This document shows, piece by piece, positions 7,995-63,836 of a DNA stretch of 64,000 nt. The notes below the pieces were generated by a model that did no database searches, was not told where the DNA came from, and was given only the letters and a program-made list of their open reading frames with translations. Each line of letters opens with the position of its first letter. Position 1 is the first letter of the stretch. This DNA is from a virus. Lineage: Duplodnaviria > Caudoviricetes. The DNA is taken from positions 2,241 to 66,240 of the IMG/VR virus record IMGVR_UViG_3300020043_005956, one strand, 5' to 3'. Both the position numbers and the translations under genes were made by a program.

Positions 7995-8043
7995 TGCTTA
8001 AAGTTTAAAGTTTAAAAATTGGTTGGTTGGTTGGTTGGTTGGT

Positions 8044-10039: not shown

Positions 10040-10090
10040 GACAGGATAAAAAAAAGTTATTATAAATGTAAATTGATAAAATATTAGTAC

Positions 10091-10098
10091 TATATTTG
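10091..10098 (+). promoter_or_regulatory. Bacteroidota sigma-A -7 element
   Basis: TATATTTG matches TAnnTTTG, upstream of 10121. Confidence 0.7.
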
Positions 10099-10120
10099 CG
10101 GACTGAAAGTAATTTAATAA

Positions 10121-10597
10121 ATGAAAGAGAGGCACGTAAAAACAACTGAAACTGTTACCAATAATTTCTCAGAAGAAACTGGGGAATTGAAGGGAAGCCA
10201 TAAAGAAACAAAGAGCTATTCGATATTCGTGGAGGATAGCGAAAGCTTTGCTTATGTGTTTTCTTCGATTATAGGGGCATTAAAGAACTTGAATGGTAAT
10301 GATGTACTTCTTTTGACTTATTGTTCGTTAAACGCAGAATTTAACACCAACAGGATTACGATTAACAAGCCCATCTGTGACGAAATTTATGAGAAGCTTG
10401 GCGTTCCATATCAGTCGGTTAAGAACTCGCTTGGAAAAATGACCAAGATTGGTATCTTTCAAAGGTTGGGTTCGGGAAGTTATTTGATTAATCCCCATTA
10501 CTATTGGAGGGGTAAAAGGAATGAGAGAGGTAAAGTTGCCAAAGAGTTTAGTATATCAGTAAAAATCAAACCAAATAATAATTTTGAAAATGAGTAA
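10121..10597 (+). CDS. RepL-like replication/winged-HTH protein
   Basis: HTH followed by GSYLINPHYYWRG, typical of the RepL family. Confidence 0.7.
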   Translation: MKERHVKTTETVTNNFSEETGELKGSHKETKSYSIFVEDSESFAYVFSSIIGALKNLNGNDVLLLTYCSLNAEFNTNRITINKPICDEIYEKLGVPYQSVKNSLGKMTKIGIFQRLGSGSYLINPHYYWRGKRNERGKVAKEFSISVKIKPNNNFENE

Positions 10598-33946: not shown

Positions 33947-35497
33947 ATGGCATACATAGTTTCACCATACGCAGGAGCAGCAGAATTTCCAAGCGACAAT
34001 CTACCAGCGCAGCTTTTATCACAAGGTTTGCAAGCTGGCTACGCTCGCCGTATGAAAGAAATGGAGAACAAGATGAAGTTGCAGGAAGAGGGGAAAAAGG
34101 CTTTTGATGAAGCGTATAAATACGCAAAGCTTGATTTAAGCAAGGTTGACCCAGTTTACCACGATGAGTTAAAGAGTTTATCGGATAATTTGGGTAAAAA
34201 TATGGTTGCTGCTTATCAAGACAACCCAAGAGCGTTTTCAAACAATACCGCCATTGCAGAAGATATTCGAAGGTTAAACACGCTTAAAACCGAGTATGAA
34301 GCTCTAAGTTCTGATATACAAAAGGCGGATGACGCTCAAAGGCAACTTAAACAAAAAGGAGACTTTGATATTACCCCTACTGAAAATAGAAAAATACTTG
34401 ATGCTTTGCGAGTTGAAAAAGACCCTGCTAAAAGGAAGGAATTATTTGAAGCATTTAAAGGTGGGTATAGAGGCGGCGAATTAGATGCAGTAACGCTTAA
34501 AGTTGCACCTTATAGGCTTAATGATTGGGCTCAAGAGGTTGAAAACTTGCAAAGGCAAGTTAACTTAAGGGAAGAGCCTTATCCACAAAAGGAATTTGTT
34601 ATTAAAACAGTAACAAATAACCCCAAGAAGCTAAAAGATATTGCAGATGAAATTGGCGTTGACGCTTCAACACCCGAAGGAATGGCGCAAGTTGAAAAAG
34701 CACTTGCATCTTATTTGACGGAAAACAAAAAACCTGCTCCGCAAGGTGGGGGTTATGGATTAGGTTATGCTTCTTCCATAACAAATCCAACACCTGGCAG
34801 AGTGGATTTTGGTATGACTACGGAAAAACAAGGGGGAGGAACAATGACGGCACAATCTTCTGTTACCTCGCCCGCTCAAATTACTTTTTCTACTGCAATG
34901 CCAACAACGCTTGTTCAACCATCAGTTTCATATGGTCTTGAAAATGGTAAAACATTAAATACCGATGCTGATTTTAAGGATAACAAGCTACTTGAGGTTG
35001 CTTTGAGTAAAGTTGCTTTATTGCCTGTATATAAAAAGGGCGTTACAAGGAAAGGCGGGGTTGACGTTTCGGGAGAAATTGTTGACGACTTGAATCTTAA
35101 TGATGAAAGATTAAATGGCAAATATGAGTATAAGGTTTTTGCAATAGGCCAAGGAACGAAGGAAGTTAGTGCAGGTAGCAGAGGCAAGGAATTGATAACA
35201 AAAGATTTGTATATCCCAATAAATCAAGTAAAAGACGCAGTTTGGGATAAACTTGCCCAATCAGAAAAGGAAAGCGTTATGAAGAACATTTTTGATATGA
35301 AGGAATTGGCGAGAGATTATAATTCTAAATTAACTCCACCTTCAAGTAGCGGAAAGCCTGCTGCTGAAAAGCCGAAGGGTGAGGCAAATAAAAACGTAGG
35401 AAAAATAATTGTTTTAGTAAACGGCAAACAAGTTCAAATACCAGAAGACCAATGGGAAAACCTTAGAAAAAAATATCCAAATGCAACAAGACAATAA
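33947..35497 (+). CDS. internal virion/ejection protein
   Basis: helical N-terminus; position before giant cargo genes. Confidence 0.65.
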   Translation: MAYIVSPYAGAAEFPSDNLPAQLLSQGLQAGYARRMKEMENKMKLQEEGKKAFDEAYKYAKLDLSKVDPVYHDELKSLSDNLGKNMVAAYQDNPRAFSNNTAIAEDIRRLNTLKTEYEALSSDIQKADDAQRQLKQKGDFDITPTENRKILDALRVEKDPAKRKELFEAFKGGYRGGELDAVTLKVAPYRLNDWAQEVENLQRQVNLREEPYPQKEFVIKTVTNNPKKLKDIADEIGVDASTPEGMAQVEKALASYLTENKKPAPQGGGYGLGYASSITNPTPGRVDFGMTTEKQGGGTMTAQSSVTSPAQITFSTAMPTTLVQPSVSYGLENGKTLNTDADFKDNKLLEVALSKVALLPVYKKGVTRKGGVDVSGEIVDDLNLNDERLNGKYEYKVFAIGQGTKEVSAGSRGKELITKDLYIPINQVKDAVWDKLAQSEKESVMKNIFDMKELARDYNSKLTPPSSSGKPAAEKPKGEANKNVGKIIVLVNGKQVQIPEDQWENLRKKYPNATRQ

Positions 35498-38400
35498 AGA
35501 TGATTTTTCAGAATTTGGAGGAGTTGTAATTGGCGACGCCCCAAAAAGTGATGATTTTTCAGAATTTGGAGGAGTTGTTATTGGCGACGCCCCTCAAAAA
35601 AAAAATTCTGTTTCAACCACTTCACCGATTGGTGGCAAAGTTGGGGCATCCGCAATCCCTTCTACTGGAAATGAAGTTGCTGGTTTGCTTGGTGTCAAAC
35701 CGATTAAGCCAACTCAATACGCTACTCCTACCCCATTGGTTGAAAAGGCAAAAACGATTGTCGAGCCTGTTGGAAAAAATTATGGACTAAGACCCGATGG
35801 CACAAAAAAAGATGTAGGTTATTTCGGTGAACTAAAAACAAAAAGCGGCAATTCTGTTACTGAATATTCGTTTGGAACTTCGGATGTCAACGGAAAAGAA
35901 ATGGACATTCCAAGTCTTGTTCCAACATTAACTCCGCAAGAGAAGCAATATGTCTTAGACAGGGCAGAAAAAGACGAACCACTTGGGCGTGATGCAATTG
36001 GTAATTCGATTTATAAAAAAGCCGTTGACCATGCAAAGCAAAGGCTGAAGGAAGGAAAAAGCCCGTTTTATAGTTCGGAGGAAGCAAAAAAAGTTTCTAC
36101 GGGTGATGAAGTTGCCAACTTATTAGGCGTAAGAACTGCACCTAAAACTTTAGGCGAACTCGGCCAAACAACCTTGCCATTAGCAAAAGACCAAAAAGGT
36201 TCTGCGCAGCGTGTTACTGCTCTGTACGAGCAAAAAGCTAAAAAAACCGACGATTTTATTCAAGAAAAGAAAAAGCTGAATGAACTTGAGGCGAAATTAA
36301 ATCAAGCCAAAAAGGACTCAGAAGAATACAATGTGATTGTTGAAGATTTCAACAAAGCCGTCGAAAGCCACAATAAAAAACTTGCCGAAAGAGAAATTCT
36401 TGCCAATGAAATAAAGGCCGCCGAAATGGGGTACAGGGAAAAGTATGGAGAAGGCAATAGGCTTGGATATTTTTATAATTCTTTCTTGAAAGGAATTGGC
36501 GGGATGAGTTCGGGCGTTGCTGATGCTTTTTTTAACGTTGCAAGAAATATTCCTGGCGTTGTTGCACCTTCAATGGAAGGGGAAGATATAACCGAGTTTA
36601 GGAAACAAATAGAACCATCCATAAGGGAAGGATTGAAAGAAAAAGTTGGGGTGGGAATTGTTCCAGAAAAAGAAAAGAAGTACAATGATGAATTTTGGAC
36701 TTCTGCGATTGGTGGGTTAACGGCTTCTGTTCCTGCAATGATAGCCCCATACGGAAGCGGACTAATTGCTCAAGCCTACGATGCAGGGCTTGAATCAATT
36801 AACTCTATTGAAGAAGGTCAAAAGCTACCCGAAACGACGAAAACAATATTTGCATCAAGTGTTGGATTGGCGCAAGGGATGCTTGAAAAGTATGGACTTG
36901 ATAAGATTTTCGGCAAACAATCGGCGGCTGTTTCAAAAAAACTTGCTGCTGATGTTATTCAGAAAGCATTAGCAAGTGGTGAAAAGACAATAACTAAAGA
37001 ATCGTTTGAGGCTGCTTTAAAGCAAAGCGTGTCGGGGCTAAAAGACAAAATAGTAAAAGCGGGAGGAAAAATTGGAGAGGCTGTTGCAGTAGAATTTAGC
37101 ACAGGGGCGGCGCAGGAGGCGTCAACAATTGCGGCTGAAAGATTATTGAATGCAAGTCAAGGAAAGGATGTTTTCGAGCCAACGTCTTGGGGAGAAACGA
37201 CAGGAAGGATTTTGTATGCAGGTTCACAAGAAGCTGTTGGGGGAGGGCTACTTGGTGCTGCTTCTGCTCCATTTAGCAAGACCAGAAATTACATAGCTGA
37301 AAAAGTTGCAGATGCGAAAACGCAAGAGGATTATCAGGCGTTAAGAAAAGAGTTTACTGAAAACGTAAGCCCTGAACAGGCAGATGCTGCAAACAAAATT
37401 ATTGACTATTACGCCAATGTGAACTCAAAAATACCTGACAATGTACCTAACAGAAAAGAGGTGATTGAAAAGGTTGTTGAAAGGGACGATATAAAAGAAG
37501 AGATTGCAAGGAAACAGCAAGAGTTGGAGCAAGTTGACGAGGCTTTTCGGCCTAAGATACAAGAGGAAATTGACGCATTAAACGGAAGGGTTGCGGAGTT
37601 AAATGAAGAAATTGCCAATCCTGTCATAGCCCAAGAAGCTGTTGTAGAAGAACAACCATCCCAACCAATCATCACGAAAAACACCACTCCAACAGACGAA
37701 AAGTATGGAACTATTGATAGGGGTGACGGCAAAGGTGTTATAGACTTAACAAGGGCTGAATACGAAGCGGAGATTGCAAAGCAGCAACCCGCCCAAGCCT
37801 TTGAGGAAATTCCAGAAATTTCTGAAGAAAAAAAATCTTTAGAAAGCGAGATTTTATCAGAAGAAGAATTTATAAATAAAACAAAAAATAACAGAAATTT
37901 TTTCAGAAAGATATTGGATAAAATTGGAGGTGTTAGTTATGATAAATATTTAAAGAATGCAAAAGAAAAATTGGCTTTATTAGAAAAAAACCCTTTAGCT
38001 TATTTTGAAAAAGAATTAAATGCTGAAATTGAATGGGGTAAAAAAGACCCAAGTGATATTAATGAAGGACTTATAGAATACTACAAGGGTGCTATCGAAA
38101 AATTAAAAAATCAACAACAAAAACAGCCTACCGCCGAAGAAGTTGTTGTTGACGAATCCCCCGCTTTTGAAACTGACCAAACTGAGGCGGCACAACCGAT
38201 TGAATTAAGTGTTGGGGAAGAAGCCATAACGCCCCAAGAAGAGCAACCTACTCAACAAGGCGAAGAAAACGTAAATCCTGCCTTAAACGACGTTGAGAGT
38301 AAGGCTAAAGCGTTGGAGCTTAAAAATGAAGGTAAAGCTGATACTCCAACAAAAGAAAATGTTACAGAAAGGCTTAGTATTAATAATCCATTTTATAAAA

Positions 38401-41084
38401 AAGTAGAAGACGCTTTAGTTAAATTAGGATTAATAGAGAAATATAACGCTCAAACCAAGACAGGAGATGTGGTTGGTGGGTATGTTCAGGAAACTTCTGA
38501 TGGAGGTTTTAGTGCAGGGAAAATGCTTTTTAGCAAAAATGGTGAAATAAGTTATTTAGATGGTAATGGGAATAAAGTTTCTTTTGATAAAAACGGTAAT
38601 GTAATATCTGAAAACACTAAACAAGTTGCACAACAAGCTAAAAAAACAGAAATTGAAGCAACTAAATTAAGTATTACATCTCTTGAAAAAACAAGAGATA
38701 GCGAAGCGTTTAAATACAAAGAAGCAACGGAAACAGATATATTAGGCAATAAGAAAAAGGTAAAAAGATTAAAAACACCACAAGAGCTAAAAGAAAGTAC
38801 AGACAAAATAAATAATGCTATTGATAAAGCCAAAGCAAGGCTTGTTGAATTGGAAAATTCAGAATCCCCTGTTGAGAGTACAGCTAAGGCGTTGGAAAAA
38901 GAATTTAATAAAGGAAGTGTTTGGTTGCCAAGTGTAGAAATGAATGTGGGAGATAATCCAGCAAAAAAAATCTCCGAAGCCTACCACGCCGATAAAGCCG
39001 CAGAAAAGGAAACCGAATTAACAAAAGCAGTTGAAAAATTATTAACCACAAATACAAACCAAAATGAACAAAAAACCAAAATTGGGGAGCGGGGAACGCT
39101 TCAAGAAAATGACCAACAAGTTGGAGAAGGAGGGCAAGTCCAAGGAATCAGCGAAGAAAATCGCCGCATCAGCGGGGATGAAAGCCTACGGCAAAGCCAA
39201 GATGCAGAAGATGGCACAGGCGGGCAAGAAGAAAATGTAACGGAACAAGGGGGTGTAACAGCCCCCGTTACCGAAGAAAAGATTGAAGCAACTGCCACCC
39301 AAGCTAACATTAAACCAAAGAACCTTCGTGACTTATACAACGTCAATAGAACGCTTTTTGGGCAAAATAAAGTAAGGTCACTTGCCAATGCGGTTATTAT
39401 GGACAAGATGATTGGCGCAATGGCAAAACGTGCAGGGGTTATCAAAGCAGAAATGTATGAAAGGTTGGAGTTTAGGAAGGCGAGCGAAGAAGAGTTGCCA
39501 CAAGGTGTTAAAATGCAAGTTGACGCTTGGCACGGCAGCCCATATCAATTTGACAAATTCACAACCGAAAAGATAGGCACGGGCGAAGGCGCACAAGCTT
39601 TTGGGTGGGGATTGTATTTTACGGATTTGGAGAGTATCGCAAGAGGATATGCGCAAAACCTTGCAACTTTAAATATAAAAACAACAACTCAACAAATTTC
39701 AGATGCAGTAAAAAAGTTTAACATAAAAAACGGTTTGCCAAGTAATTATAACTATTCAATACTTGCAGATGTTTTAGTGTCAAACAATATGAATATTGAC
39801 AAAGCAATTGATTTTTACAATAAAAGCATACAAAAAAGAACAGAAGATTATAATAATCCTGAAAACAAATTCAGGGCTGGATATTTGTTGGAGTCAATAA
39901 AAGACGAGCAATCTGAATTAAAAACTTTAATTGGACTAAAGGAAAACAATACTTCTATTAAGCCTCCAGAAAGGTTGCTATACAAGGTTTCACTTCATAA
40001 TGGAAAGAAACCAAGCGAATATACTTGGTTAGAGTGGGATAAGCCTTTAACAAAAGAGCAAAGAAATATAATTATAAAAGCTATTGAAGATAAAGACTTT
40101 AAAACAAGGACTGCTTATGGAAACCCTTTAGAAGTTGTTGACACTTTAGGTACAACTGGCAAACAAGTTTACGAATCACTTGCTTTTGAATTTGGTCAAA
40201 AACAAGCTTCGTTACTTCTTTTAGAAAATGGAATTGATGGCGTTAAATATCCAGCCGAAAGCATAGCAAGAGCCGCAACATCTGACACGGCAAGAGGTTT
40301 TAACTATGTAGTATTCGATGAAAACGCAGTAAGTATAGAAGAAGTAATTAAGTTCCAAAAAGACGCTAACAAAGCAAGGGGCGCAGCTATGGTGAATATA
40401 GATGGAACTGCCATCATCTACGCTATAACCGACCCTAACGTATCAACTCCTTTACACGAACTTGCTCACGTTTTTGAACACTACCTTAAAGACTACGAAA
40501 GGGAAACAATCATTCGTAACGCAAAAACAAATGGGTGGACAACCGAAACAAGTGAATATTTTGCAAGGGGCTTTGAAAAATATCTTGCCGATGGAGTTGC
40601 CCCAAGTGCGGAAATGAAACGTATATTTGAGCGTTTCAAAGAATGGCTTACCGAAATTTACAATGGAGTAACGGGAAGCGAAATAAACATACCTCTCAAC
40701 GATGAAATGCGTGCCATATACGCAAAAATGTTGGGCGAAGAAGAAGTTGCTAAAACACAACCAAATGAAACAAAAACAGAACAAGAAAAGCCCTTGCTGG
40801 AAGGGGTACGAAATGGTGGGAATGAAGCCCAAGTCGGGCAAGAAAGTGCCGAACTGCGTGCCGAAGCCAAAAACCAAGAAGAAGTAAAAGCAACCATTGC
40901 AGATGCCGTAGCGAAGTTTTATGCTATTGAAGGCAAAGGTTCTCAAAAGCGTGAGGCAGCAAAAGCGTATAGGCAAACTTTAGAAAAAATGCCAACGGTA
41001 AAAAACATTTTTGACAATATAAAGCCTATATTTGCACAACTTGAAAGAGAAGGAATTATAACAAAATCTAAAGAATGTCCATAA
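35481..41084 (+). CDS. giant polyvalent cargo protein with ART-PolyVal-like and HExxH segments
   Basis: AWHGSPYQFDKF...GEGAQAFGWGLYFT...GIDGVKY...NYVVFD; TPLHELAHVF. Confidence 0.8.
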   Translation: MQQDNKDDFSEFGGVVIGDAPKSDDFSEFGGVVIGDAPQKKNSVSTTSPIGGKVGASAIPSTGNEVAGLLGVKPIKPTQYATPTPLVEKAKTIVEPVGKNYGLRPDGTKKDVGYFGELKTKSGNSVTEYSFGTSDVNGKEMDIPSLVPTLTPQEKQYVLDRAEKDEPLGRDAIGNSIYKKAVDHAKQRLKEGKSPFYSSEEAKKVSTGDEVANLLGVRTAPKTLGELGQTTLPLAKDQKGSAQRVTALYEQKAKKTDDFIQEKKKLNELEAKLNQAKKDSEEYNVIVEDFNKAVESHNKKLAEREILANEIKAAEMGYREKYGEGNRLGYFYNSFLKGIGGMSSGVADAFFNVARNIPGVVAPSMEGEDITEFRKQIEPSIREGLKEKVGVGIVPEKEKKYNDEFWTSAIGGLTASVPAMIAPYGSGLIAQAYDAGLESINSIEEGQKLPETTKTIFASSVGLAQGMLEKYGLDKIFGKQSAAVSKKLAADVIQKALASGEKTITKESFEAALKQSVSGLKDKIVKAGGKIGEAVAVEFSTGAAQEASTIAAERLLNASQGKDVFEPTSWGETTGRILYAGSQEAVGGGLLGAASAPFSKTRNYIAEKVADAKTQEDYQALRKEFTENVSPEQADAANKIIDYYANVNSKIPDNVPNRKEVIEKVVERDDIKEEIARKQQELEQVDEAFRPKIQEEIDALNGRVAELNEEIANPVIAQEAVVEEQPSQPIITKNTTPTDEKYGTIDRGDGKGVIDLTRAEYEAEIAKQQPAQAFEEIPEISEEKKSLESEILSEEEFINKTKNNRNFFRKILDKIGGVSYDKYLKNAKEKLALLEKNPLAYFEKELNAEIEWGKKDPSDINEGLIEYYKGAIEKLKNQQQKQPTAEEVVVDESPAFETDQTEAAQPIELSVGEEAITPQEEQPTQQGEENVNPALNDVESKAKALELKNEGKADTPTKENVTERLSINNPFYKKVEDALVKLGLIEKYNAQTKTGDVVGGYVQETSDGGFSAGKMLFSKNGEISYLDGNGNKVSFDKNGNVISENTKQVAQQAKKTEIEATKLSITSLEKTRDSEAFKYKEATETDILGNKKKVKRLKTPQELKESTDKINNAIDKAKARLVELENSESPVESTAKALEKEFNKGSVWLPSVEMNVGDNPAKKISEAYHADKAAEKETELTKAVEKLLTTNTNQNEQKTKIGERGTLQENDQQVGEGGQVQGISEENRRISGDESLRQSQDAEDGTGGQEENVTEQGGVTAPVTEEKIEATATQANIKPKNLRDLYNVNRTLFGQNKVRSLANAVIMDKMIGAMAKRAGVIKAEMYERLEFRKASEEELPQGVKMQVDAWHGSPYQFDKFTTEKIGTGEGAQAFGWGLYFTDLESIARGYAQNLATLNIKTTTQQISDAVKKFNIKNGLPSNYNYSILADVLVSNNMNIDKAIDFYNKSIQKRTEDYNNPENKFRAGYLLESIKDEQSELKTLIGLKENNTSIKPPERLLYKVSLHNGKKPSEYTWLEWDKPLTKEQRNIIIKAIEDKDFKTRTAYGNPLEVVDTLGTTGKQVYESLAFEFGQKQASLLLLENGIDGVKYPAESIARAATSDTARGFNYVVFDENAVSIEEVIKFQKDANKARGAAMVNIDGTAIIYAITDPNVSTPLHELAHVFEHYLKDYERETIIRNAKTNGWTTETSEYFARGFEKYLADGVAPSAEMKRIFERFKEWLTEIYNGVTGSEINIPLNDEMRAIYAKMLGEEEVAKTQPNETKTEQEKPLLEGVRNGGNEAQVGQESAELRAEAKNQEEVKATIADAVAKFYAIEGKGSQKREAAKAYRQTLEKMPTVKNIFDNIKPIFAQLEREGIITKSKECP
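35500..35592 (+). repeat. 51-bp tandem duplication encoding DDFSEFGGVVIGDAP twice
   Basis: gatgatttttcagaatttggaggagttgtnattggcgacgcccc twice. Confidence 0.9.
39064..39240 (+). CDS. overprinted small basic protein (58 aa, +1 frame)
   Basis: MNKKPKLGSGERFKK...AKKIAASAGMKAYGKAKMQKMAQAGKKKM; A/C-rich start context. Confidence 0.7.
   Translation: MNKKPKLGSGERFKKMTNKLEKEGKSKESAKKIAASAGMKAYGKAKMQKMAQAGKKKM
40765..40887 (+). CDS. overprinted small basic protein (40 aa, +1 frame)
   Basis: MKQKQNKKSPCWKGYEMVGMKPKSGKKVPNCVPKPKTKKK. Confidence 0.72.
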   Translation: MKQKQNKKSPCWKGYEMVGMKPKSGKKVPNCVPKPKTKKK

Positions 41085-41612: not shown

Positions 41613-44600
41613 ATGGCTTGCGAGGTTAAATACCAAGGGCAGACACTTTCTTTTGAAGAGTTTGCCGAAAAGTTGCATAATGGACTTTTGGACGAATTTA
41701 TTGCCCAAGGTGTTGTTAAGAATGTACCAACCATAAAATCAATTCAAGATGCCGTACAAAAGCAAAGCGCAGAGGGCGTTCTTTCACGCCAACAAGGAAA
41801 AGTTGGAGAAGCAGGGGGTGAACGTCAAGGAATGGGACAAGGCAAGCAAGGGCAAGAAGCTGCCAAGCCGAGCAAAGAAGAAATAACTTCCGCAGAAGCA
41901 ACGGTTGCTCTTGATGAAGAAACCGAACTATTGCTTGAAGGACTTGCCGCAGAAAGGAGAAGGGCGGGCAAATATACAGTTGACGGAGTAACATATACAA
42001 GAAACGAAAAAGGACAAGGTATTGTTTCGGAGAAAGGTGGGTATATTAGGTTTACAAGCGAACCTGGCGGTGGTGGCGTTGTCGTTCCTTTTAGATACAA
42101 ACTTGCTGAAGCAAAAAGAGTTCAGCCTTCACACGAAGGAGGTTTGAGAAATCCAAATTTCTTTATACCCGAAGGTCAACCAAAAAATAGAAACGACCAA
42201 GCAAGTTTGCAAGCAGAAGATGATTTTGCAAACAACCCAAGGTTTGATGAGCTTGGAGAAGATTCAGGGGCGTATAAAGGTGCGCCTGTTGCAAATGAAA
42301 GGGATGAGATTATTCAAGGGAACAGCAGGGGTGCTGGAATTAAAAAAGGATATGCTATTGGCAATAAAAAGTACAAGCAAGACTTAGCTGCAAATGCAGA
42401 GAAATTTGGATTTACCAAAGAACAAGTTGAAAGTATGGAAAACCCAATGCTTGTTCGTGAGGTTATTGCAACTGATGAAAAAGCTATTGAACTTGGAAAC
42501 TACGATGTAAAAGACCTTGAAACCGCAGGAAAAAGAAGGATTGACCCTTCTGCTCTTGTTCGTAGGCTTCCTTCAAAAGTTAAAGCGAGCCTTGCTAAAG
42601 TTATTTCAGCAGGGGAAACGATTAAAGAATCTATTAAAGAAAATGCGGATGAGATTTATCAACTTATACGTCCGTATATCAATACAAGTATTGCCAACAC
42701 TATAATCACAAATGGCAAATTAAATTCTGTTGGTATTGAGGACGTTGAGGGCTTATTTACGCAGTTCTTGTTTCAGAATGGCGACCCAAACCTTCCTCAA
42801 ATGTTTGAAGGTTTGTCTAATACACAACGTGAGGGCATTAAAAAGGCTTTACCATACTTGCTAAGTGCAGGAGCAGGCAAAAGTATCATACCCGATGTTC
42901 AAGAAGCGATAATTGCTTTGCATTATTTTAGGTCAAGCGGTGAACAAAGTTTTGCTGCGTGGGCTAATCAAATTGACATTAATACAGGTCAATCCAAAAA
43001 GGATATGTTTAGCCCTTTGGCTTTGAAACTTGCCGAAAATTTCAACAAGGCAACAAGTCAAAACGAAATTGCAGGTATTCCGCAAAAAGGTGGAGAGGCG
43101 AGCAGTTTTGCTAAGTATAGCCAATTAACGCAAGGAACGGAAGGCGGGTTATTTGAAGAAGCCCAAGAGGGTATGTCAAGGCAAGATGCGGTAAAGGAAG
43201 CGTTTGGAGTTGAATATACGCCAAGAAAAGGATATACAAGTGCTGCTAAGTTTGAGGAAAGTGAAGCTAAAAGAAAGGAAATAGAGAAAGAAAAGGCTGA
43301 AAAGGAAAAGGCTAAACAAACAAAGAAGGAGATAAAAGAAAAGCTTAAAACAGCTCAAGAAGCATTAAACAGAACAAAAGAGCAACTTTCTGAAATTGAA
43401 AGACTGAAACAAAGTGCTGCTTCAAATTTAGAAAAAATACTTTCAAAAATTGGTGGAATACAAAATATAACACCACAAGAAAGAACAAAGCTTGTTGAGG
43501 ATTTAAAAAATATTATAAAGGATTTAACAGCCTTAACTTATTTAGAAATAAAAAATCTACTTGCTCCGATTTTAACAAGAAAGGGTTTCTCTGAACTTGA
43601 AGCAGAGGATATAATAAATGAAGCAGCAAGTGATTTCATTTCAGAAGAAGATGCTTATATTGGTTTAACAAACGAATACGATAAAGCACAAAGGGCGGCA
43701 AGGGGATTAGACCCAATAGCAAAAGCCGCAAGGCAAACAAACCAAGTGGTTTGGGATAGAACAGTTGAGCGCATACAAAATGGAAATATTGTATTAAGGG
43801 ATAAGACCAACACAGGGCTTATTTCAAAATTAGCCACAGGAGAAATAGAAGCAATTAGCCCTGAAATACAAGCCGCTATTTTATATGATAGGATATATCT
43901 TCAAAATGCTAAAGAGGCGTATGTAAAAAAACTTGCCGAGCAAGGTGCTGTTATAACAAACGAGGAAAGGTTAAATATATTAGCTCAATTAGCTGAAATT
44001 GATGCACATATTCAAGAAAACGAATTAGCCAATGCGAATGTTGGAAGAACCTGGGGAAGAACAGGCGTATTTAGGCAGGTTTTAGCGGCAAGAGATTATA
44101 CATTAAAAGGTGTAATTTCAAGAGCGAAGGCAATGAATGGAGGTGCATCGTTAAGCACAGAGCAAGAAGCGAAGCTTGTTAAGTTAACCGAGCAATTTGC
44201 TGAACTGCAAAAGGATTTAGACAAAATTCAAAAGGCTTTTGATGAGCAATTAAAAATAGAAAAAGAGATAGCTCGGAAAGAAGGATATAACAAAGCAAAA
44301 ATGGAGGTTTCTTCTGTTCCTTCTTCTTCTACTATAAAGGAAAAGTCAAAAGAACTTGCCAATAAGCTTAGGGCTGCAAAAATTACAAGTTCTACATACA
44401 CCTTTAGTTCTGTTGTTCCAATACCTCCAACGGTTGTAAACGTGGGTATAGAGGCTGCGGCAAAGTCTATTGAAACTGTTGGTACTGTTGCTGATGCAAT
44501 AGCAAAGGGTATTGAAGCTATAAAAAATGAGGCATCAGGTTGGTATAAAAACTTGACACCACAAGAAAAGCAAAGGTTCGATAATTGGTTTGGAGGATTT

Positions 44601-47600
44601 GTAAACGAAAAACTTGCAGAGCCAAAACAAGAAAAGAGGGGGGCGAAATCTACTGATGAACTTCTTGTTGACCTTGCTGTAAAAGCGGATGGAGTATTAA
44701 CTGACGAAAGCTGGGAGCTTGAGCCGTTGTTAAAAAATATTCTCAAGCAAGAGGTTATCAATGGGGCGGAAACACTTGATGAAGTTGCTGAAAAGGTTTT
44801 TGATTTTCTTTCCAATTCAGTTCCTAATCTTGATATTGAAGATATAAAAGACTTGATGAGTGGTTATGGTAGTTTTAAAGAACTTAGCAAAGACCCGCTT
44901 GTTGAAAAGATAAGAAAGCTAAGAAACCTTGGAAGGCTAAATGGTAGGTTGAGGGATGTCAAGGAAAGGATGAAATTGCCAAAAAGAACAGGAAGGGAAA
45001 TTGCAAAATTAGATACCGAAGCTCGTGCAATAAACAAGGAAATTGGCAGACTGATAAAGGAGTTGGGTTTGGCATCAGAACCAACAGAAGAAGAAAAGAT
45101 AAACAAATGGAAGAGCCAAAGGGATGCTGTTGTTCAAAGGTTAAAAAACAAAATAGAGGACTTAAATAGACAAAAAGAACAAAAGCAACGAGATGCCAAA
45201 GTTAAAAAAAGTCAAATAACGGACGATGTAATAAAAGACCTTCAAGACCAAATTGAATCGCTTGAAAACACATTGAGCAATATACCAGAGGTTAAGATAA
45301 GTGATGCAGAGAAGAAAGTTGAAAGCAAAATTGTTGACTTAGAAAATAAAATTACCGAGGCCAAAAGAAAGATAAGAGAAAACGATTTAAGTATAAAATC
45401 TTTTGAAAAGGTTACAAGCCCTGAAATAGAAAGTTTGCAAAATGAGTTGTCTGACTTAAATTCAACTCTTGCCAAAATGAGGGAGGAAAATAAAACCTCT
45501 GTTGAGAAATTAGCAGAAGCTCAAAAAAGACTTGACTTATTAGCAAAGGCGGAAATAAAAAGGCTTGAAGAAATTAGAAACAAATTAATTTTAGAAGGAC
45601 TTACTGACGAGGAAGTTAAAGTTTCAACGACACAAAAACTTGGCGAATTATTTGGAATAGCTAAAACCAAAAAAGCCAGTTTAGCGCAAAGGGGCGATGC
45701 GCTACAAGCAACTATTGACCAACTAAAAAGGGATATAAACGATTTAATACCATCGGAAGCGAAAGAGCAAGCTTTAATTGATAAAGCAATAAAAAGAAGA
45801 GAAGCGGTTTTAAAAGCATTAGAAGAAAAGCTTGCGAAGGGTAATTTTGAAAAAAGAAAAACAAGAATTATACCTTACACAAAAGAACTTGCAGAGGTCA
45901 ATGCGAAGATTGAAGAAACAAAACAAAAGATAGATTTTGAAATTGAAAAAATAAGACTTGCAAATAGGACATTTTGGACAAGATTGGCTGAAAATCTTTT
46001 TGATGTTTTAAGTTTGCCAAAATCATTGGTAGCAAGTATTGACTTGTCAGCCCCGCTTAGGCAAGGTATCGTTTATGCTTATACAAAGCCTGGAACATTT
46101 TTAAAAGCATTTTTCGAAATGCACAAGTTTGCCTTTAATAAATCCGCTTATGAAAATTGGCAAAAATCTGTAAAGGCAGACCCAAGATATGTTGAGTTCA
46201 CAAAACAGTACGGGTTGTATATGGCAGAAGAGAGTGGCAAGATGAGCGCAAAAGAAGAAATGTTTGTTTCTAAATTTGTAGGTGCTATTAAAAAAATACC
46301 TGTATACGGTCAACTTTTGGCAGGAACAGAAAGGGCGTATATTGGTTTTTTAAATAAACTACGTTGGGACGTTTTCAACTCCTATGTAGATATGGTTAAT
46401 GATATGCCATTAACTGTTGAAGAAAGACAGCAAGAGTTAAAAGAGCTTGCTAAACTTGTAAACAATACAACGGGCAGAGGCTCTTTAGGGGTGCTTTCGG
46501 GAGCTAAAAAACCGTTAAATGTTTTATTTTTCTCTCCAAGTCTTGTTGCTTCAAGGTTTCATCCGTTTACTGCTGCCGCAAGGATGTTATTTCCTGGCGA
46601 CAAACCAATGCCTCGTGTGGCAAGAAACCAAACTATTGAAACCTATGCTAAATTCTTTGGTGGATTAGCCTTAACTATGTTTTTGATTAAATTTGGACTT
46701 GGGGATGATGATGATAAAGATGTTGAGTTTGAACCAATAAGTTCGGACTTTTGGAAAATAAGGCTTGAGGATATTAGGACTGATTTAACGGGCGGCTATA
46801 TTCAACCTTTTGTTGTATTGGCTAAAATTTTTGGTGGTTCAAAAAATGCAAACACAGGCGAGGTAAAGAAATTTGGTGATGAAGGCTATGGGGCAACGAC
46901 AAGAATGGATTTGCTTGAAACTTTTTTTGCAAATAAATTAAACCCTACCGCCTCTTTGTTTTATAAAGAATACTTAGTAGGTGTGGAGGGCAAGAAAAGG
47001 GATAGAAACAAGCTGTATGAGTATATGTTTGGCGAAATACCTAACAACGACCTTAATATAGGAGAAACTGCATTCAACCTTACAACTCCGTTATATTTAA
47101 GAGATATGGCAGAGATAATAAATGAAGAATCAAAATATGCTCCAATAGTAGTTCCTCTCGCTTTATATGGTTCGGGAATAAATAAATTTGGAGGAAAGAC
47201 TATGCTTACTCCAAATACAAAAGAATACATAAAAGCAAAGACCTATTCTATTGTTCCTGCAAGAACAAGCACGGATAAGAAAATTGATTTTTATATTTTC
47301 AAAAAAGATGGAAGTGTTATAAATACAGAAAAGAATGAGTTTTTAAATAACCAAAGTTTAGAGAAATATAACAGCTACGCCAATGAGAATTACAAAAAAA
47401 TGGTTTTAAATTTAAACGATAAGTTTATGCAAAGTTTAAATGAAAGCCAAAGGGCGGAGGTGATGAAAACGGTTAAACAAGAGGCTGATAAAATTGCAGA
47501 GATTCAGATAAATATGGACATGCAAAAGACTGTTGTTTTGCCGAGCGAGGCGGCTAAAATGAAAAAGGATTTTGAAAAAGAAATTCAATTTTTTTATAAT

Positions 47601-47870
47601 GATTTAAAAAAGTATCAAAATCCAAATGAAGAAAACAGGGCTTACGATTTTGTTAAATTTAAAGAATCAATAAAAGGGCAAGGGGAGGCAATGGAAAAAT
47701 ACTTATTTAAACCCAAGAATATTTCTTCTGGGCAGTTTGATAAAATAAATCAAAAAGTTGGATTTGTTTATAAGAACAAAAAAGAGCTTGCCGAAGCGTA
47801 TATTGAAGCATTAAAGTCAACCAATAAAACAAAGCAGCAAAGGGAACTTATAAAAGCAGTTGAAGATTAA
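41613..47870 (+). CDS. giant polyvalent cargo protein with DdrB-like ParB domain and long coiled coil
   Basis: RYKLAEA...QPSH...QPKNRND...GAPVAN...IIQGNSR; SIDLSAPLRQG in the C-terminal part. Confidence 0.78.
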   Translation: MACEVKYQGQTLSFEEFAEKLHNGLLDEFIAQGVVKNVPTIKSIQDAVQKQSAEGVLSRQQGKVGEAGGERQGMGQGKQGQEAAKPSKEEITSAEATVALDEETELLLEGLAAERRRAGKYTVDGVTYTRNEKGQGIVSEKGGYIRFTSEPGGGGVVVPFRYKLAEAKRVQPSHEGGLRNPNFFIPEGQPKNRNDQASLQAEDDFANNPRFDELGEDSGAYKGAPVANERDEIIQGNSRGAGIKKGYAIGNKKYKQDLAANAEKFGFTKEQVESMENPMLVREVIATDEKAIELGNYDVKDLETAGKRRIDPSALVRRLPSKVKASLAKVISAGETIKESIKENADEIYQLIRPYINTSIANTIITNGKLNSVGIEDVEGLFTQFLFQNGDPNLPQMFEGLSNTQREGIKKALPYLLSAGAGKSIIPDVQEAIIALHYFRSSGEQSFAAWANQIDINTGQSKKDMFSPLALKLAENFNKATSQNEIAGIPQKGGEASSFAKYSQLTQGTEGGLFEEAQEGMSRQDAVKEAFGVEYTPRKGYTSAAKFEESEAKRKEIEKEKAEKEKAKQTKKEIKEKLKTAQEALNRTKEQLSEIERLKQSAASNLEKILSKIGGIQNITPQERTKLVEDLKNIIKDLTALTYLEIKNLLAPILTRKGFSELEAEDIINEAASDFISEEDAYIGLTNEYDKAQRAARGLDPIAKAARQTNQVVWDRTVERIQNGNIVLRDKTNTGLISKLATGEIEAISPEIQAAILYDRIYLQNAKEAYVKKLAEQGAVITNEERLNILAQLAEIDAHIQENELANANVGRTWGRTGVFRQVLAARDYTLKGVISRAKAMNGGASLSTEQEAKLVKLTEQFAELQKDLDKIQKAFDEQLKIEKEIARKEGYNKAKMEVSSVPSSSTIKEKSKELANKLRAAKITSSTYTFSSVVPIPPTVVNVGIEAAAKSIETVGTVADAIAKGIEAIKNEASGWYKNLTPQEKQRFDNWFGGFVNEKLAEPKQEKRGAKSTDELLVDLAVKADGVLTDESWELEPLLKNILKQEVINGAETLDEVAEKVFDFLSNSVPNLDIEDIKDLMSGYGSFKELSKDPLVEKIRKLRNLGRLNGRLRDVKERMKLPKRTGREIAKLDTEARAINKEIGRLIKELGLASEPTEEEKINKWKSQRDAVVQRLKNKIEDLNRQKEQKQRDAKVKKSQITDDVIKDLQDQIESLENTLSNIPEVKISDAEKKVESKIVDLENKITEAKRKIRENDLSIKSFEKVTSPEIESLQNELSDLNSTLAKMREENKTSVEKLAEAQKRLDLLAKAEIKRLEEIRNKLILEGLTDEEVKVSTTQKLGELFGIAKTKKASLAQRGDALQATIDQLKRDINDLIPSEAKEQALIDKAIKRREAVLKALEEKLAKGNFEKRKTRIIPYTKELAEVNAKIEETKQKIDFEIEKIRLANRTFWTRLAENLFDVLSLPKSLVASIDLSAPLRQGIVYAYTKPGTFLKAFFEMHKFAFNKSAYENWQKSVKADPRYVEFTKQYGLYMAEESGKMSAKEEMFVSKFVGAIKKIPVYGQLLAGTERAYIGFLNKLRWDVFNSYVDMVNDMPLTVEERQQELKELAKLVNNTTGRGSLGVLSGAKKPLNVLFFSPSLVASRFHPFTAAARMLFPGDKPMPRVARNQTIETYAKFFGGLALTMFLIKFGLGDDDDKDVEFEPISSDFWKIRLEDIRTDLTGGYIQPFVVLAKIFGGSKNANTGEVKKFGDEGYGATTRMDLLETFFANKLNPTASLFYKEYLVGVEGKKRDRNKLYEYMFGEIPNNDLNIGETAFNLTTPLYLRDMAEIINEESKYAPIVVPLALYGSGINKFGGKTMLTPNTKEYIKAKTYSIVPARTSTDKKIDFYIFKKDGSVINTEKNEFLNNQSLEKYNSYANENYKKMVLNLNDKFMQSLNESQRAEVMKTVKQEADKIAEIQINMDMQKTVVLPSEAAKMKKDFEKEIQFFYNDLKKYQNPNEENRAYDFVKFKESIKGQGEAMEKYLFKPKNISSGQFDKINQKVGFVYKNKKELAEAYIEALKSTNKTKQQRELIKAVED
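41749..41886 (+). CDS. overprinted small basic protein (45 aa, +1 frame)
   Basis: MPYKSKAQRAFFHANKEKLEKQGVNVKEWDKASKGKKLPSRAKKK. Confidence 0.72.
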   Translation: MPYKSKAQRAFFHANKEKLEKQGVNVKEWDKASKGKKLPSRAKKK

Positions 47871-54831: not shown

Positions 54832-55005
54832 GTGAACATTGAATCAATATGCTACGTTACTCTGACAATAGCGGCCATTCTTGCAACTGCAAACAATTAC
54901 ATTCTGTTTCGGGCAAGGGTAAAAAAAATAAGGCAATCAAGACAAATATTAAAAAAGCTTCAAACCCAAAAAAACAAAAAAAATAAAGAAAATGTCCCAC
55001 TTTGA
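54832..55005 (+). CDS. small membrane protein (GTG start)
   Basis: translated by hand: hydrophobic helix followed by a basic tail. Confidence 0.4.
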   Translation: MNIESICYVTLTIAAILATANNYILFRARVKKIRQSRQILKKLQTQKNKKNKENVPL

Positions 55006-55210
55006 CCCTACTGATTTTTCATCCGAAGACAAGTTGATGTATTTTCCACTTATCGTTAGTGTTGTTTTGAATGTTTTTCACATTCTTCAAACGCCAGAGT
55101 TTTATCAATCTCTTTTATATGTAATTCAATTTGCTTCTGCGGCAATAAGCTTGTTTTTTGGCTTAAAAAAATTGGTTAATTATATTATATTTCTTTTTAA
55201 GAAAAAATAA
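54992..55210 (+). CDS. holin-like membrane protein
   Basis: two hydrophobic helices and a basic C-terminus, in the lysis region. Confidence 0.55.
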   Translation: MSHFDPTDFSSEDKLMYFPLIVSVVLNVFHILQTPEFYQSLLYVIQFASAAISLFFGLKKLVNYIIFLFKKK

Positions 55211-55212
55211 AA

Positions 55213-55488
55213 ATGACAACTTTTAAATTAAAGAACTTTACCAAAAACAACACTCCAAGGTGGGCTGCTCAAATTGGAAATTCAGCACTTATAATAGGTG
55301 CTTTTTTTGCTTCTGCTGCCGCAACTGCAACTGCTATTGAGAGTTATTTTGAAGTTGTTCCTGCAAGCCTTATTGATATATTAGCTTACTCAAAATTAAT
55401 AGGTGCTGTTGGTGGTTTGTTTTGTGGTTTTGTAAAAACTATTTCTAAGCTGTTTGGTATTCCATTAAAAGATTTAGATTTGCAATGA
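55213..55488 (+). CDS. holin-like membrane protein
   Basis: TPRWAAQIGN motif and two hydrophobic helices. Confidence 0.6.
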   Translation: MTTFKLKNFTKNNTPRWAAQIGNSALIIGAFFASAAATATAIESYFEVVPASLIDILAYSKLIGAVGGLFCGFVKTISKLFGIPLKDLDLQ

Positions 55489-55691
55489 AAGCAGAGGTTG
55501 ACAAATACGAAGAGTCAAGGGAGTTTCCTTGGGAGATTGTGTTGAGCCAAGCCGTTCCTTTTATTGTGGAACTTTTTTCAAGAAGAAGGGCTTTAAAGAA
55601 ACGCATTGAAGACCTTGAAAACCTTATAAAGGTGCAGCAGTATCAAATAACAGAATTAAAGGAGCTGATAGAAAATAAAAAGCGAGATTGA
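55485..55691 (+). CDS. small coiled-coil lysis-region protein
   Basis: ORF track. Confidence 0.55.
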   Translation: MKAEVDKYEESREFPWEIVLSQAVPFIVELFSRRRALKKRIEDLENLIKVQQYQITELKELIENKKRD

Positions 55692-55704
55692 TTACTTTTG
55701 TTGC

Positions 55705-56112
55705 ATGAATAAAGCAACGATAACAAGAACGTATAAAAAGGACGTTACATTGGGCGAAATGAGCCTATCAAATTCCAAGGGTGAAACATTATCACTTAAA
55801 ACGATTGAACTGCCTTGGAAAGAAAATAAAAGCAGAATTTCTTGCATTCCAAAGGGAACTTATTCAGTAACATTCACCCCTTCGCCAAGGCTAAAAAAGA
55901 AAACTTATAGGGTTGTGAATGTGAAAGGTCGGGATGGGATTTTATTTCACCCAGCGAATTTTTCAAGTCAACTAAAGGGTTGCATTGCTCCTTGCTTAAA
56001 TCACGCCGATATTAATAATGACGGAGTTATTGATGGAACTTCAAGCAGAAATGCAACGGAAGCTTTAGAGAAATTCTTCCAAACAGAAAGTTTTGAGTTG
56101 ACTATTGAATAA
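55705..56112 (+). CDS. DUF5675-like protein (candidate lysin)
   Basis: TIELPWKEN...SCIPKGTY...RDGILFHPAN...GCIAP. Confidence 0.85.
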   Translation: MNKATITRTYKKDVTLGEMSLSNSKGETLSLKTIELPWKENKSRISCIPKGTYSVTFTPSPRLKKKTYRVVNVKGRDGILFHPANFSSQLKGCIAPCLNHADINNDGVIDGTSSRNATEALEKFFQTESFELTIE

Positions 56113-56118
56113 GTTTTT

Positions 56119-56218
56119 TAACTTTGCACAAAGTATAAACCTGTCGGTTGTTATTGACGTATCCACTTAGACAGGCTGCCCCTGAAGTTTCTTTGATTAC
56201 TTTGGGGGTTTCTTTTTT
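56119..56218 (+). ncRNA. candidate small RNA with own promoter and terminator
   Basis: TAACTTTG at 56119-56126; CCTGTC/GACAGG stem; 11-bp terminator stem plus T tract; no ATG-initiated ORF. Confidence 0.6.
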
Positions 56219-56231
56219 GTGGAAGGGGTGG

Positions 56232-56261
56232 AAAAAACAAAAGCCACCGATTAAAGTGGCT
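56232..56261 (-). terminator. terminator of the leftward operon
   Basis: AGCCAC/GTGGCT stem followed by TTTGTTTTTT on the minus strand. Confidence 0.65.
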
Positions 56262-56301
56262 CCTGTCCTGTTTACCTAATTACCTGTGGCAAAGGTAGGG
56301 A

Positions 56302-56592
56302 TTATTTTACTTCAAATTTAACTTTCTTTCCATGTTCAAACATCGTGTTTTGCTTGAACCTACATTTGCCCGATTTTCCGTTGCAAGGTTGGTATGCAAA
56401 ACAGGCTTTTCCGCATCCATCGTGTTCGGATATCTCCTCTGCTGCCCTACACCAAAAATACTTGTCGTTCTTTTCGGGTACAGCCTCAAATAGTTCAATT
56501 TCGGTCAATCCTTGCTCTTTGGCATCGTTCAAATGATAGTCCAACGTGTAGCACATTTCCGAGTTTTCGGTAAGAAAGTAGTATTTAGGCAT
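56302..56592 (-). CDS. Cys-rich small protein
   Basis: FWC...CGKACFAYQPCNGKSGKCRF. Confidence 0.7.
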   Translation of the reverse strand: MPKYYFLTENSEMCYTLDYHLNDAKEQGLTEIELFEAVPEKNDKYFWCRAAEEISEHDGCGKACFAYQPCNGKSGKCRFKQNTMFEHGKKVKFEVK

Positions 56593-56656
56593 TGTTTATT
56601 TGTTTATGTTAGGTATGTGCCATAAAGTGGCTTATGTCTGGTAGTTAGCACCAATT

Positions 56657-56851
56657 TTAAGAAGTGCTACCATCAACAATTTCATCATTTAAAAACTTTT
56701 CTACGCTTTCTCTTCTTGGTGTTTTCAAAACTACGATTTGACTCCCATCGGTGTCGTGTAAATGAAGTAACACTTGTGCTTCAAATTGCATACCTACATC
56801 ACCATTTTTAGGTGAAATAGTTACTACTTTTAATTCGGTTTCTTGTATCAT
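56657..56851 (-). CDS. cassette-borne hypothetical protein
   Basis: fills cassette 1 almost exactly. Confidence 0.7.
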   Translation of the reverse strand: MIQETELKVVTISPKNGDVGMQFEAQVLLHLHDTDGSQIVVLKTPRRESVEKFLNDEIVDGSTS

Positions 56852-56985
56852 AAAAAACTGGTGCTAACATTGGTTTTACGCAAGTGGGGGTTAGCGTTTA
56901 ACCCATCTTACGTGCTTTTTATAATCTTTTGTGCAGGTTGAAAGTTTTGTGCTATTTAGCCCCACCTGCGTAAAGCCAAATCACG

Positions 56986-57192
56986 TTATAGGGCATTTTG
57001 AGAACCCAACAACTCAACTTTAATAATCCTGTCATCTTCCGAAAAATTAATCGGACTATCATTAAAGTTATCTGAAATGAACTTGTAAGCAGCCATAGGG
57101 TCGCAATTAAATTCATCATGAAATGTTTTTTCATCAATCATATCGGTGCAATCAAACTCCACCGTTACTTTAAAACCAATATTTTTTTCCAT
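56986..57192 (-). CDS. cassette-borne hypothetical protein
   Basis: fills cassette 2; stop codon lies within the GTTA core. Confidence 0.7.
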   Translation of the reverse strand: MEKNIGFKVTVEFDCTDMIDEKTFHDEFNCDPMAAYKFISDNFNDSPINFSEDDRIIKVELLGSQNAL

Positions 57193-57350
57193 TGTAATTA
57201 AATTAAAAACGCCCTATAACAAACAATAACCGCAAGTGGGGGCGATATACCACATTGAAGCTATTTTGCACCTAAGAAAGTTTATCGTCAAGTGAAAGGT
57301 TGGTACATTAAACCCCACCTGACGGTTATTGTCAGCCGTTATCGGTAATT

Positions 57351-57560
57351 TTAACGAGCCGCTATTTCAAGTTCACCACCATTTTGACTAACGAATGTTT
57401 CTTTACAATTTCTGCAACGATAGTATTTTAAGTTTCCATACCAATCTGTGTTCATATCTGAAATAAGTTTCAGCTTCTTTTCACAGTCAGGACATAAAAC
57501 TACCGATAACACATTATTTGCGTCAGTGGGGCTTTCGTTTTTTAAATTATTATTTTCCAT
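57351..57560 (-). CDS. cassette-borne zinc-ribbon protein
   Basis: CPDC...CRNC; N-terminus is read through the attC remnant. Confidence 0.7.
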   Translation of the reverse strand: MENNNLKNESPTDANNVLSVVLCPDCEKKLKLISDMNTDWYGNLKYYRCRNCKETFVSQNGGELEIAAR

Positions 57561-57570
57561 GTTTCAATTT

Positions 57571-57801
57571 TTACTTAATTTTAATCATCACCCTATCCCC
57601 GACCTGCCTTACAAACTGCCCTTTGATGGTAAGGACAGAATCTTTTCCAACTTTACCGAGGTTGTAACCGATTGGGATTTGATTGTTTATGATTGACTTT
57701 GGCTGCGAGTGGTTCTTGCTGCAAATCGTTGGCATTGATAGCCAAATAAACAATGCAACTGCAATGTAACTGACCAAAGCGAACTTAGCAAATGTTTCCA
57801 T
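57571..57801 (-). CDS. membrane-anchored hypothetical protein
   Basis: ORF track 57571..57819; probable start METFAK. Confidence 0.55.
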   Translation of the reverse strand: METFAKFALVSYIAVALFIWLSMPTICSKNHSQPKSIINNQIPIGYNLGKVGKDSVLTIKGQFVRQVGDRVMIKIK

Positions 57802-63192: not shown

Positions 63193-63582
63193 TCATTGGT
63201 TCAATCCTTCAAAAATTAATTCTTTGCCACTTGTGAAGTAAAACACGTTATGGAGGTGATGGATTCCTGTTAATTCGATTCGGTGGACGTATTCAATCCA
63301 TTTTCCATTGACAAAGTTAATTTGCATCCCGTGTAGGTTGTATGAGTTTTCACGGATTTTGATTGCACCAACTTTGGTTAGTAGTTCCTCGGTGATGGGG
63401 ATGGGTTCGGCAAAATCTGAATATTCGGTCAGTCCATGAACTTCTGTTTCGCCTAAATAAACCCTTTGTCCAAACTTAATAATATTTGGTCTTGATTCGT
63501 TTTCAAAAAAATCAATTCGTATTATTTTACCACCTCGGTCTTTCACAAGGTTCCCAATCCTGAGTTCGTTTGCTTTTATCAT
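63193..63582 (-). CDS. conserved Bacteroidota-phage protein
   Basis: ANELRIGNLV...PIPITEELL...HHLHNVFYFTSGKEL pattern. Confidence 0.75.
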   Translation of the reverse strand: MIKANELRIGNLVKDRGGKIIRIDFFENESRPNIIKFGQRVYLGETEVHGLTEYSDFAEPIPITEELLTKVGAIKIRENSYNLHGMQINFVNGKWIEYVHRIELTGIHHLHNVFYFTSGKELIFEGLNQ

Positions 63583-63587
63583 TGGTT

Positions 63588-63626
63588 ATGTGGATAGTTA
63601 ATGTGGATAGTTAATGTGGATAGTTA
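63588..63626. repeat. perfect 13-bp tandem repeat x3
   Basis: ATGTGGATAGTTA at 63588, 63601 and 63614. Confidence 0.95.
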
Positions 63627-63836
63627 TTACTCAATCAATAAATTATATTCGGATAGGTACTCTCGTATCTTCTCCCTGCTATCTTGATAGGCAATATACA
63701 TATCTTCGGGCAGAGTCTCATATTTGAGTTTGCCTCTTAGATATTGGTCATATTCAAATATAGCCGCAGCATACTTACTGCCATTAATTGCTAATTGTGC
63801 TTCTTCGATTGTGTCGAACTCTAGGATTATCTTCAT
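63627..63836 (-). CDS. conserved small phage protein
   Basis: AINGSKY...EYDQYLRGKLKY pattern. Confidence 0.7.
   Translation of the reverse strand: MKIILEFDTIEEAQLAINGSKYAAAIFEYDQYLRGKLKYETLPEDMYIAYQDSREKIREYLSEYNLLIE

Follow-up and report, generated by a model that had tools for sequence, protein, structure and literature searches.

The order in which phage gene classes are expressed is generally attributed to proteins such as sigma factors, repressors and polymerases. RNA-based control is known from the CI RNA of satellite phage P4, which is related to the c4 antisense RNA of phages P1 and P7 and acts in a similar manner. The c4 RNA is 77 nt long, its loops complement sites in the phage's own messages near the ribosome-binding region, and it blocks expression in trans, according to the accessible part of PMC12197685, where VpdS of vibriophage VP882 and PreS of lambda are likewise described as phage trans-acting RNAs that tune the phage cycle. 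On the side of the Bacteroidota, the accessible part of PMC7366714 describes GibS of Bacteroides thetaiotaomicron, an AT-rich sRNA that uses a long seed to pair with translation initiation regions and may need no chaperone. The literature searched (supplements aside) gave no regulatory RNA for any phage of the Bacteroidota, and the candidate unit described here would be, as far as that literature shows, the first one proposed. It is similar to c4, as this RNA is portrayed in the accessible part of PMC12197685, in being a putative small phage RNA with a loop complementary to the phage's own mRNA near the ribosome-binding region and with a predicted block in trans.

The window, i.e., the whole stretch of DNA that was analysed, comprises 64,000 bases and corresponds to positions 2241-66240 of a 66,240-bp viral record (G000) of an uncultured freshwater phage, which ends in 121-bp terminal repeats and has a G+C content of 37.8%. 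On a simple ORF map, the genes are organised in a rightward arm (10121-56112, + strand) and a leftward arm (- strand), the latter running from about 10135 down to 1 and then, across the record ends, from 64000 down to 56302. The rightward arm carries five tRNAs, three giant ORFs and one weak similarity, below threshold, to the SU10 capsid family, and it is closed by the last late gene, which encodes a DUF5675 protein (55705-56112, + strand). Between the two converging arms lies a gap of 189 bp (56113-56301), inside which the candidate RNA unit is located. Since relatives of the DUF5675 protein were found in genomes of Flavobacterium, Chryseobacterium and other Bacteroidota, and since promoter-like boxes of the TAnnTTTG type are present, the host is very probably a member of the Bacteroidota. 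The phage appears to be virulent.

Several further elements were recorded in the window. Two of the giant ORFs (35481-41084 and 41613-47870, + strand; 1,867 and 2,085 aa) contain polyvalent-protein domains (ART-PolyVal below the curated cut-off; ddrB-ParB at an E-value of 2e-22), and the third (1,618 aa) matches nothing; the idea that promoters of a virion RNA polymerase were involved was rejected, as the giant ORFs match polyvalent-protein domains and not polymerases. The divergent region between the arms (9475-10130) is packed with short repeats (GAAAGAGGGGTTG, CCTCAATGAAAGAGGG, AATAGTACC...) and, judged by its sequence, is likely an origin or iteron region. On the - strand, seven CCAA repeats (8010-8045) occupy the leader region before the gene at 6864-7994, and the gene at 63193-63582 is directly preceded by three tandem copies of AACTATCCACATT (63575-63635). 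Two paralogous elements of ~105 nt (56868-56972 and 57218-57325, - strand) were additionally found between genes of the leftward arm, both closed by a 9-bp long-range helix (CAGGUGGGG...CCCCCACUUG) and having internal stretches in common; they had no match in Rfam, and a BLAST comparison of this stretch of G000 gave no match in the relative G001 introduced below.

Directly 3' of the stop codon of the last late gene, a -7 box of the TAnnTTTG type (TAACTTTG, 56119-56126, + strand) was identified; the TTTG closest to this box is situated 23 nt upstream. With a start site predicted from the sequence at about 56131, the putative RNA (56131-56218, + strand) would be about 82-88 nt long and would consist of a short single-stranded 5' end, a first hairpin and a terminator, with nine unpaired bases between the predicted start and the hairpin. 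Hairpin 1 (56140-56175, + strand) has a 9-bp stem (CCUGUCGGU/ACU..GACAGG) and a loop of ~16 nt, which presents most of the seed GUUGUUAUUGAC (DNA GTTGTTATTGAC; 56147-56158, + strand), the first two seed bases being part of the stem. The seed is partially accessible, as the unpaired probabilities in the loop are only moderate. An intrinsic terminator follows (GCCCCUGAAGU..ACUUUGGGGGU plus U-run; 56178-56218, + strand). No ATG occurs inside the unit. Of the elements that the initial annotation had placed behind the lysis genes, the ATG-less unit and the terminator were recovered together with a promoter-like box.

Folding of the + strand of the unit yielded a minimum free energy of -24.5 kcal/mol (z -2.6; 1 of 200 shuffles was as good), compared with only -19.2 kcal/mol for the opposite strand, and the G.U pairs, the T-run and the better fold all favour the + strand. 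In the leftward sense, the terminator of the leftward arm (GCCAC..GUGGC plus U-run; 56232-56260, - strand) is placed upstream of hairpin 1, so that leftward transcripts should stop short of this hairpin. No terminator was found between the last late gene and the unit; for this reason, late transcripts should run through, and the hairpin would also form the 3' end of late messages. When the whole window was searched against Rfam with cmscan at the gathering score, five tRNAs only and nothing for the unit were returned, and at E<=5 the region 55900-57600 gave four weak, unrelated matches, none of them to C4 antisense RNA. Positions 55000-57500 were without match among the INPHARED phage records.

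The unit was also found in a 58.9-kb viral record (G001), which is ~72-95% identical to G000 (mostly 84-94%) over shared blocks and mosaic elsewhere, and on the metagenome contigs L199, L200 and L201; contigs from three of the four public DNA runs compared with the early arm of G001 (X1, X4 and X5) span it as well. Among the 24 public runs listed, none with the phage was an RNA data set. Near-complete relatives were limited to two, and the distant relative L202 is a 2,667-bp contig without early genes, for which searches turned up no fuller genome. Scans of viral, metagenome and genome contigs returned no related carriers beyond G001, L199, L200/L201, L202 and the fragment L289, and searches with loose patterns gave mostly chance matches inside coding DNA. 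A covariance model (R1), built from five sequences, found no match below an E-value of 1 outside G000 and G001 in 99 sources (the window, 50 of 51 viral DUF5675 loci, 45 of 80 metagenome loci and three pieces of G001).

Among G000, G001 and L201, none of the 35 columns of hairpin 1 varies, compared with 61 of 408 columns in the adjacent DUF5675 gene and 7 of 30 in the stem and loop of the terminator. Variation in the terminator follows its structure: the loop varies freely, U.G and G.U pairs are replaced by U-A and A-U in G001 and by C-G in L199, and the stem and U-run are present in all five sequences, with changes that preserve the stem. The -7 box reads TACCTTTG in G001 and L200/L201 and TATCTTTG in L202, and these three variants differ only at the two free positions of TAnnTTTG. 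The match of the loop to the promoter tag described below is kept in all four distinct close sequences.

The most divergent sequence, L202, has the same late-gene order as G000, and its DUF5675 protein is 60% identical. Right behind the stop codon, its TATCTTTG box, a hairpin and a terminator follow one another as in G000. In the hairpin stem (GGCGUAA/UUAACGCC), the three outer pairs are changed on both sides in a compensatory manner, and the loop (UGAAUUAUUGACGUUCUUCU) shares the ten bases TTATTGACGT with that of G000. That the box, the succession of two hairpins and ten bases of the loop are retained in this one divergent sequence, in which little else is unchanged, argues for the unit being a real, structured + strand RNA with a sequence-constrained loop. 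The 5' part of the seed (GUUG, facing leader positions 9-12) is changed in L202 and the CGU, which is superfluous for pairing, is kept, so that the loop may be constrained by something other than pairing. The TGTC...GACA in the stem of hairpin 1 resembles resolvase half-sites; the idea of a resolvase site was rejected in view of the compensated stem changes in L202 and the lack of the repeat at the promoters. The window encodes a resolvase-type serine recombinase (230 aa; PF00239, E-value 1.5e-28; 2899-3591, - strand), just upstream of the second tagged promoter.

The seed has its counterparts at three leftward promoter-like sites, which, read leftward, have a common layout of a -7-like box, 4 nt, GTCAATAACAA, C or T, 8-9 nt and an ATG. 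At the first site (624-647, - strand), the box TATTTTCG (647-640) is followed by caga, GTCAATAACAAT (635-624), 9 nt and the ATG at 614; at the second (2624-2647, - strand), the box TACATTTG (2647-2640) is followed by caat, GTCAATAACAAC (2635-2624), 8 nt and the ATG at 2615, behind which a frame of 32 codons opens; and at the third (8557-8580, - strand), the box TTACTTTG (8580-8573) is followed by tcct, GTCAATAACAAT (8568-8557), 8 nt and the ATG at 8548. All three tagged operons begin with small ORFs that match no recognised function. The layout claimed in the initial annotation, with a -7 box 4 nt before the motif and an ATG soon after, holds at all three sites; only the second site has a perfect TAnnTTTG box, and the first and third miss one consensus letter each. 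The claimed distance of about 50 kb between unit and targets applies to the linear coordinates; across the terminal-repeat junction, coordinate arithmetic gives only ~10.6-18.5 kb. Further promoter-like sites in the leftward arm are untagged (e.g., TATCTTTG near 9250 and near 62540), and the tag consequently marks only a subset of operons.

In Flavobacterium psychrophilum, the TAnnTTTG box spans positions -12 to -5 and 5' UTRs have a median length of 24 nt, as reported in the accessible part of PMC9723704. By this box rule, the G of the motif is predicted to be the first transcribed base (+1) and the tagged leaders would be ~20 nt long. A motif upstream of the transcription start had been named beforehand as an observation that would speak against pairing with the leaders; the motif was instead located at or after the predicted start at all three of them. 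Its position is fixed: in 3 of 3 sites of G000, 4 of 4 of G001 and 1 of 1 of L289, it lies 4 nt past the -7-like box (3 nt in one copy of G001), and the ATG comes 7-16 nt after it.

As DNA, GTTGTTATTGAC recurs on the same (+) strand at 2624-2635 (12/12), 624-635 (11/12) and 8557-8568 (11/12), in agreement with the previously noted match between 56147-56158 and three leftward sites (12/12 at one, an exact 11-mer at the other two). Allowing up to one mismatch, six matches were obtained vs 0.43 expected, a number reached by none of 100 shuffles; the remaining two of the six (35574 and 38142) are located within late ORFs and appear to be chance matches. In the 66,240-bp record, four exact copies of the 11-mer GTCAATAACAA were found on the - strand and none on the + strand. 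Per strand, a first-order Markov model predicts ~0.04 occurrences of the 11-mer and ~0.007 of the 12-mer. With location left out of account, the probabilities estimated for a chance match are moderate (~0.01-0.04). In G001, five exact copies of the 11-mer were found on one strand, one in the unit and four at leftward promoters of matching layout, and the fragment L289 has one more copy at a promoter. Orthologous promoters of G000 and G001 differ in the box, in the 4-nt spacer and in what follows the motif, and the 11-mer is invariant between them. Leader position 12 is C or U in all eight copies, both of which pair with the G of the loop.

The 12-mer of the loop is complementary to the predicted positions +1 to +12 of the three leaders, 8-9 nt before the ATG; if the true start were 2-3 nt further down, the duplex would shrink to 8-9 bp. 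Duplex folding of the whole RNA with start regions gave meaningless long-loop structures, and a loop-only test was used instead. In a comparison of the 19-nt loop with 102 start regions, the three tagged leaders took ranks 1 to 3 (-15.0, -19.2 and -15.7 kcal/mol for targets 1, 2 and 3, respectively), followed by a next-best value of -12.8 kcal/mol. Of 500 trials with shuffled loops, 7 attained the third-best value and 9 the best one. A genome-wide scan of both strands detected duplex sites of equal energy (e.g., -20.1 at + 33581 and -19.6 at - 38160), which contain bulges or G.U pairs. Specificity of the proposed pairing would for this reason rest on the exact match, the fixed position and the conservation, and not on energy.

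The tag extends beyond these relatives. Three records (G002, G005 and G006) that share with G000 only part of the helicase-primase gene (42-47%) contain TATATTTG-caag-GTCAATAACAA-acaaca..ATG once per record, and this promoter cassette was observed before three different downstream genes (loci L317, L330, L343 and L291). No antisense partner was detected in G002 (estimated to be 82% complete), G005 and G006 by pattern search, 8-mer scan or R1, and R1 gave no match in G002-G006 as a whole. Presence of the tag without a detected partner suggests that, even without the RNA, it is of some use in initiation or as part of the leader; evolution of the RNA may have taken advantage of a tag that already existed.

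From the observed sequence, structure, conservation and position we infer how the unit would be transcribed, how it would pair inside the cell, and in which direction and when it would act. An RNA of ~85 nt would be made from the convergent gap behind the last late gene, both from its own sigma-A-type -7 box and as the 3' end of late-operon transcripts, and its hairpin loop would present GUUGUUAUUGAC. Leaders made from three leftward promoters (four in G001) would begin with the complement, GUCAAUAACAA(C/U), and loop and leader could pair there over 11-13 bp, about -20 to -9 before the AUG. The duplex would occupy most of the short leader. Bacteroidota are not known to have Hfq-type chaperones or Shine-Dalgarno-guided initiation, and with initiation of this kind lacking, a duplex on the leader would be expected to keep ribosomes from loading and/or to target the message for decay. 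As the RNA accumulates, the tagged operons would be turned down together. If pairing is what matters, leaders of L202-type phages would be expected to follow their own loop (GUCAAUAAUU...) or at least to keep GUCAAUAA.

We assign a probability of roughly 0.5 to this reading, i.e., that the unit is a trans-acting anti-leader RNA that represses the tagged operons and is possibly also the tail of late messages. The initial annotation had likewise proposed a trans-acting sRNA that shuts off early messages at their extreme 5' ends; its structural part is borne out by a conserved, structured + strand unit whose loop complements invariant leader tags (three here and four in G001), and the shut-off itself retains the probability just given. 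Its suggestion of a role in carrier or lysogeny maintenance gained no support, as no integrase or repressor family was found among the proteins scanned, in which the sole recombinase is the 230-aa serine recombinase. More tentatively, and as a conjecture that we hold to be plausible without calling it probable, promoters of one class would stamp their messages with the tag, and all of these messages would be retired at once by a single loop-reading RNA, giving an RNA-based early-to-late switch in a virulent Bacteroidota phage.

The initial annotation's own alternative was that the motif is a protein operator, present both in the unit and at the promoters. Spelled out, a phage or host protein would bind GTCAATAACAA as DNA, the site acting as a repressor or initiator element at +1 to +11, and 56147-56158 would be a fourth operator that could serve, e.g., as a roadblock between the converging arms while the hairpin has another purpose. 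At the DNA level, all promoter copies of the motif are identical, the distant lineage of G002, G005 and G006 keeps it without a detected antisense partner, and two of the three -7 boxes are imperfect and could call for a helper, all of which would suit an operator; however, the 12-mer has no dyad or repeat structure, and the promoter copies and the fourth copy are alike over the 12-mer only. Nor would an operator account for the covariation in the stem, for conservation of the -7 box, for the terminator or for the strand bias, and one serine recombinase is the only member of a DNA-binding family among the 27 leftward-strand proteins scanned, an argument that is weak given that most of these proteins match nothing. 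We regard a protein operator as unlikely. The same grade is given to the view that hairpin 1 is a 3'-end element of the late operon, acting in stability or processing or as a protein-binding loop, and that its complementarity to the tag is coincidental. Such an element would be in keeping with the missing terminator between the hairpin and the last late gene, with conservation of the CGU that pairing does not require, with a chance expectation for the 12-mer (~0.007-0.04) that is small but not negligible, and with the existence of other duplex sites of equal energy. Coincidence is, however, difficult to reconcile with a 12/12 match to a tag that is itself invariant and fixed in position, the more so as the match is situated in the loop, has the strand sense needed for the two RNAs to pair, and persists in all four distinct close sequences.

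If pairing does occur, its effect could also be the opposite of repression, i.e., pairing at the 5' end could shield the tagged messages from 5'-end-dependent decay and let them last into the late period. Stabilisation by pairing at the extreme 5' end is known from FasX, which acts in this way on ska mRNA in streptococci, and the duplex considered here is predicted to begin at the first transcribed base; yet it would also cover -20 to -9 of a ~20-nt leader, which would lie inside the region required by the ribosome, and the placement of the RNA behind the late genes fits shut-off better, which makes a stabilising duplex quite improbable. Least credible of all is a small protein gene, for which a 43-codon, TTG-started frame that overlaps the unit (56148-56279) would have to be used. 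This frame is open in G000, kept in L201 and mostly open in G001; against a gene stand the TTG start, the course of the frame through both terminator hairpins, the unrelated residues that result from changes in the terminator loop, the frame-shifted end in G001 and the absence of such a frame from L202. Because of the shifted end, the absence from L202 and the two terminators crossed, the frame is probably not a gene. Repression of the tagged operons by a trans-acting RNA is the reading that we carry into the comparison with known systems.

If it is true, a trans-acting RNA that reads a shared 5'-terminal tag on several operons would represent a different and compact type of switch. The c4 and CI RNAs function in the immunity of temperate elements and have a single operon as their target, whereas here no lysogeny genes were found among the proteins scanned and pairing is predicted with the initial bases of three or four operons that lie apart from one another, at distances of 10-18 kb from the unit, in a phage whose probable host does not use Shine-Dalgarno sequences; unlike the c4 family, moreover, the unit has no match to the Rfam C4 covariance model. 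VpdS and PreS are Hfq-dependent and act largely on host messages, in contrast to the present unit, whose predicted targets are tagged operons of the phage itself. With GibS and the sRNAs of B. thetaiotaomicron (PMC7366714, accessible part) it has phylum-level signals in common, namely promoters of the TAnnTTTG type, and Rfam searches of the window gave no indication of homology to GibS. The host-encoded GibS has a 5' seed that is unstructured and 30-50 nt long, whereas the putative seed of the phage unit comprises 12 nt in a hairpin loop. At present, the value of the unit is that of a well-defined and testable candidate, which would offer a defined 12-nt seed/tag pair for studying base-pairing RNAs that operate without Hfq and without Shine-Dalgarno sites.
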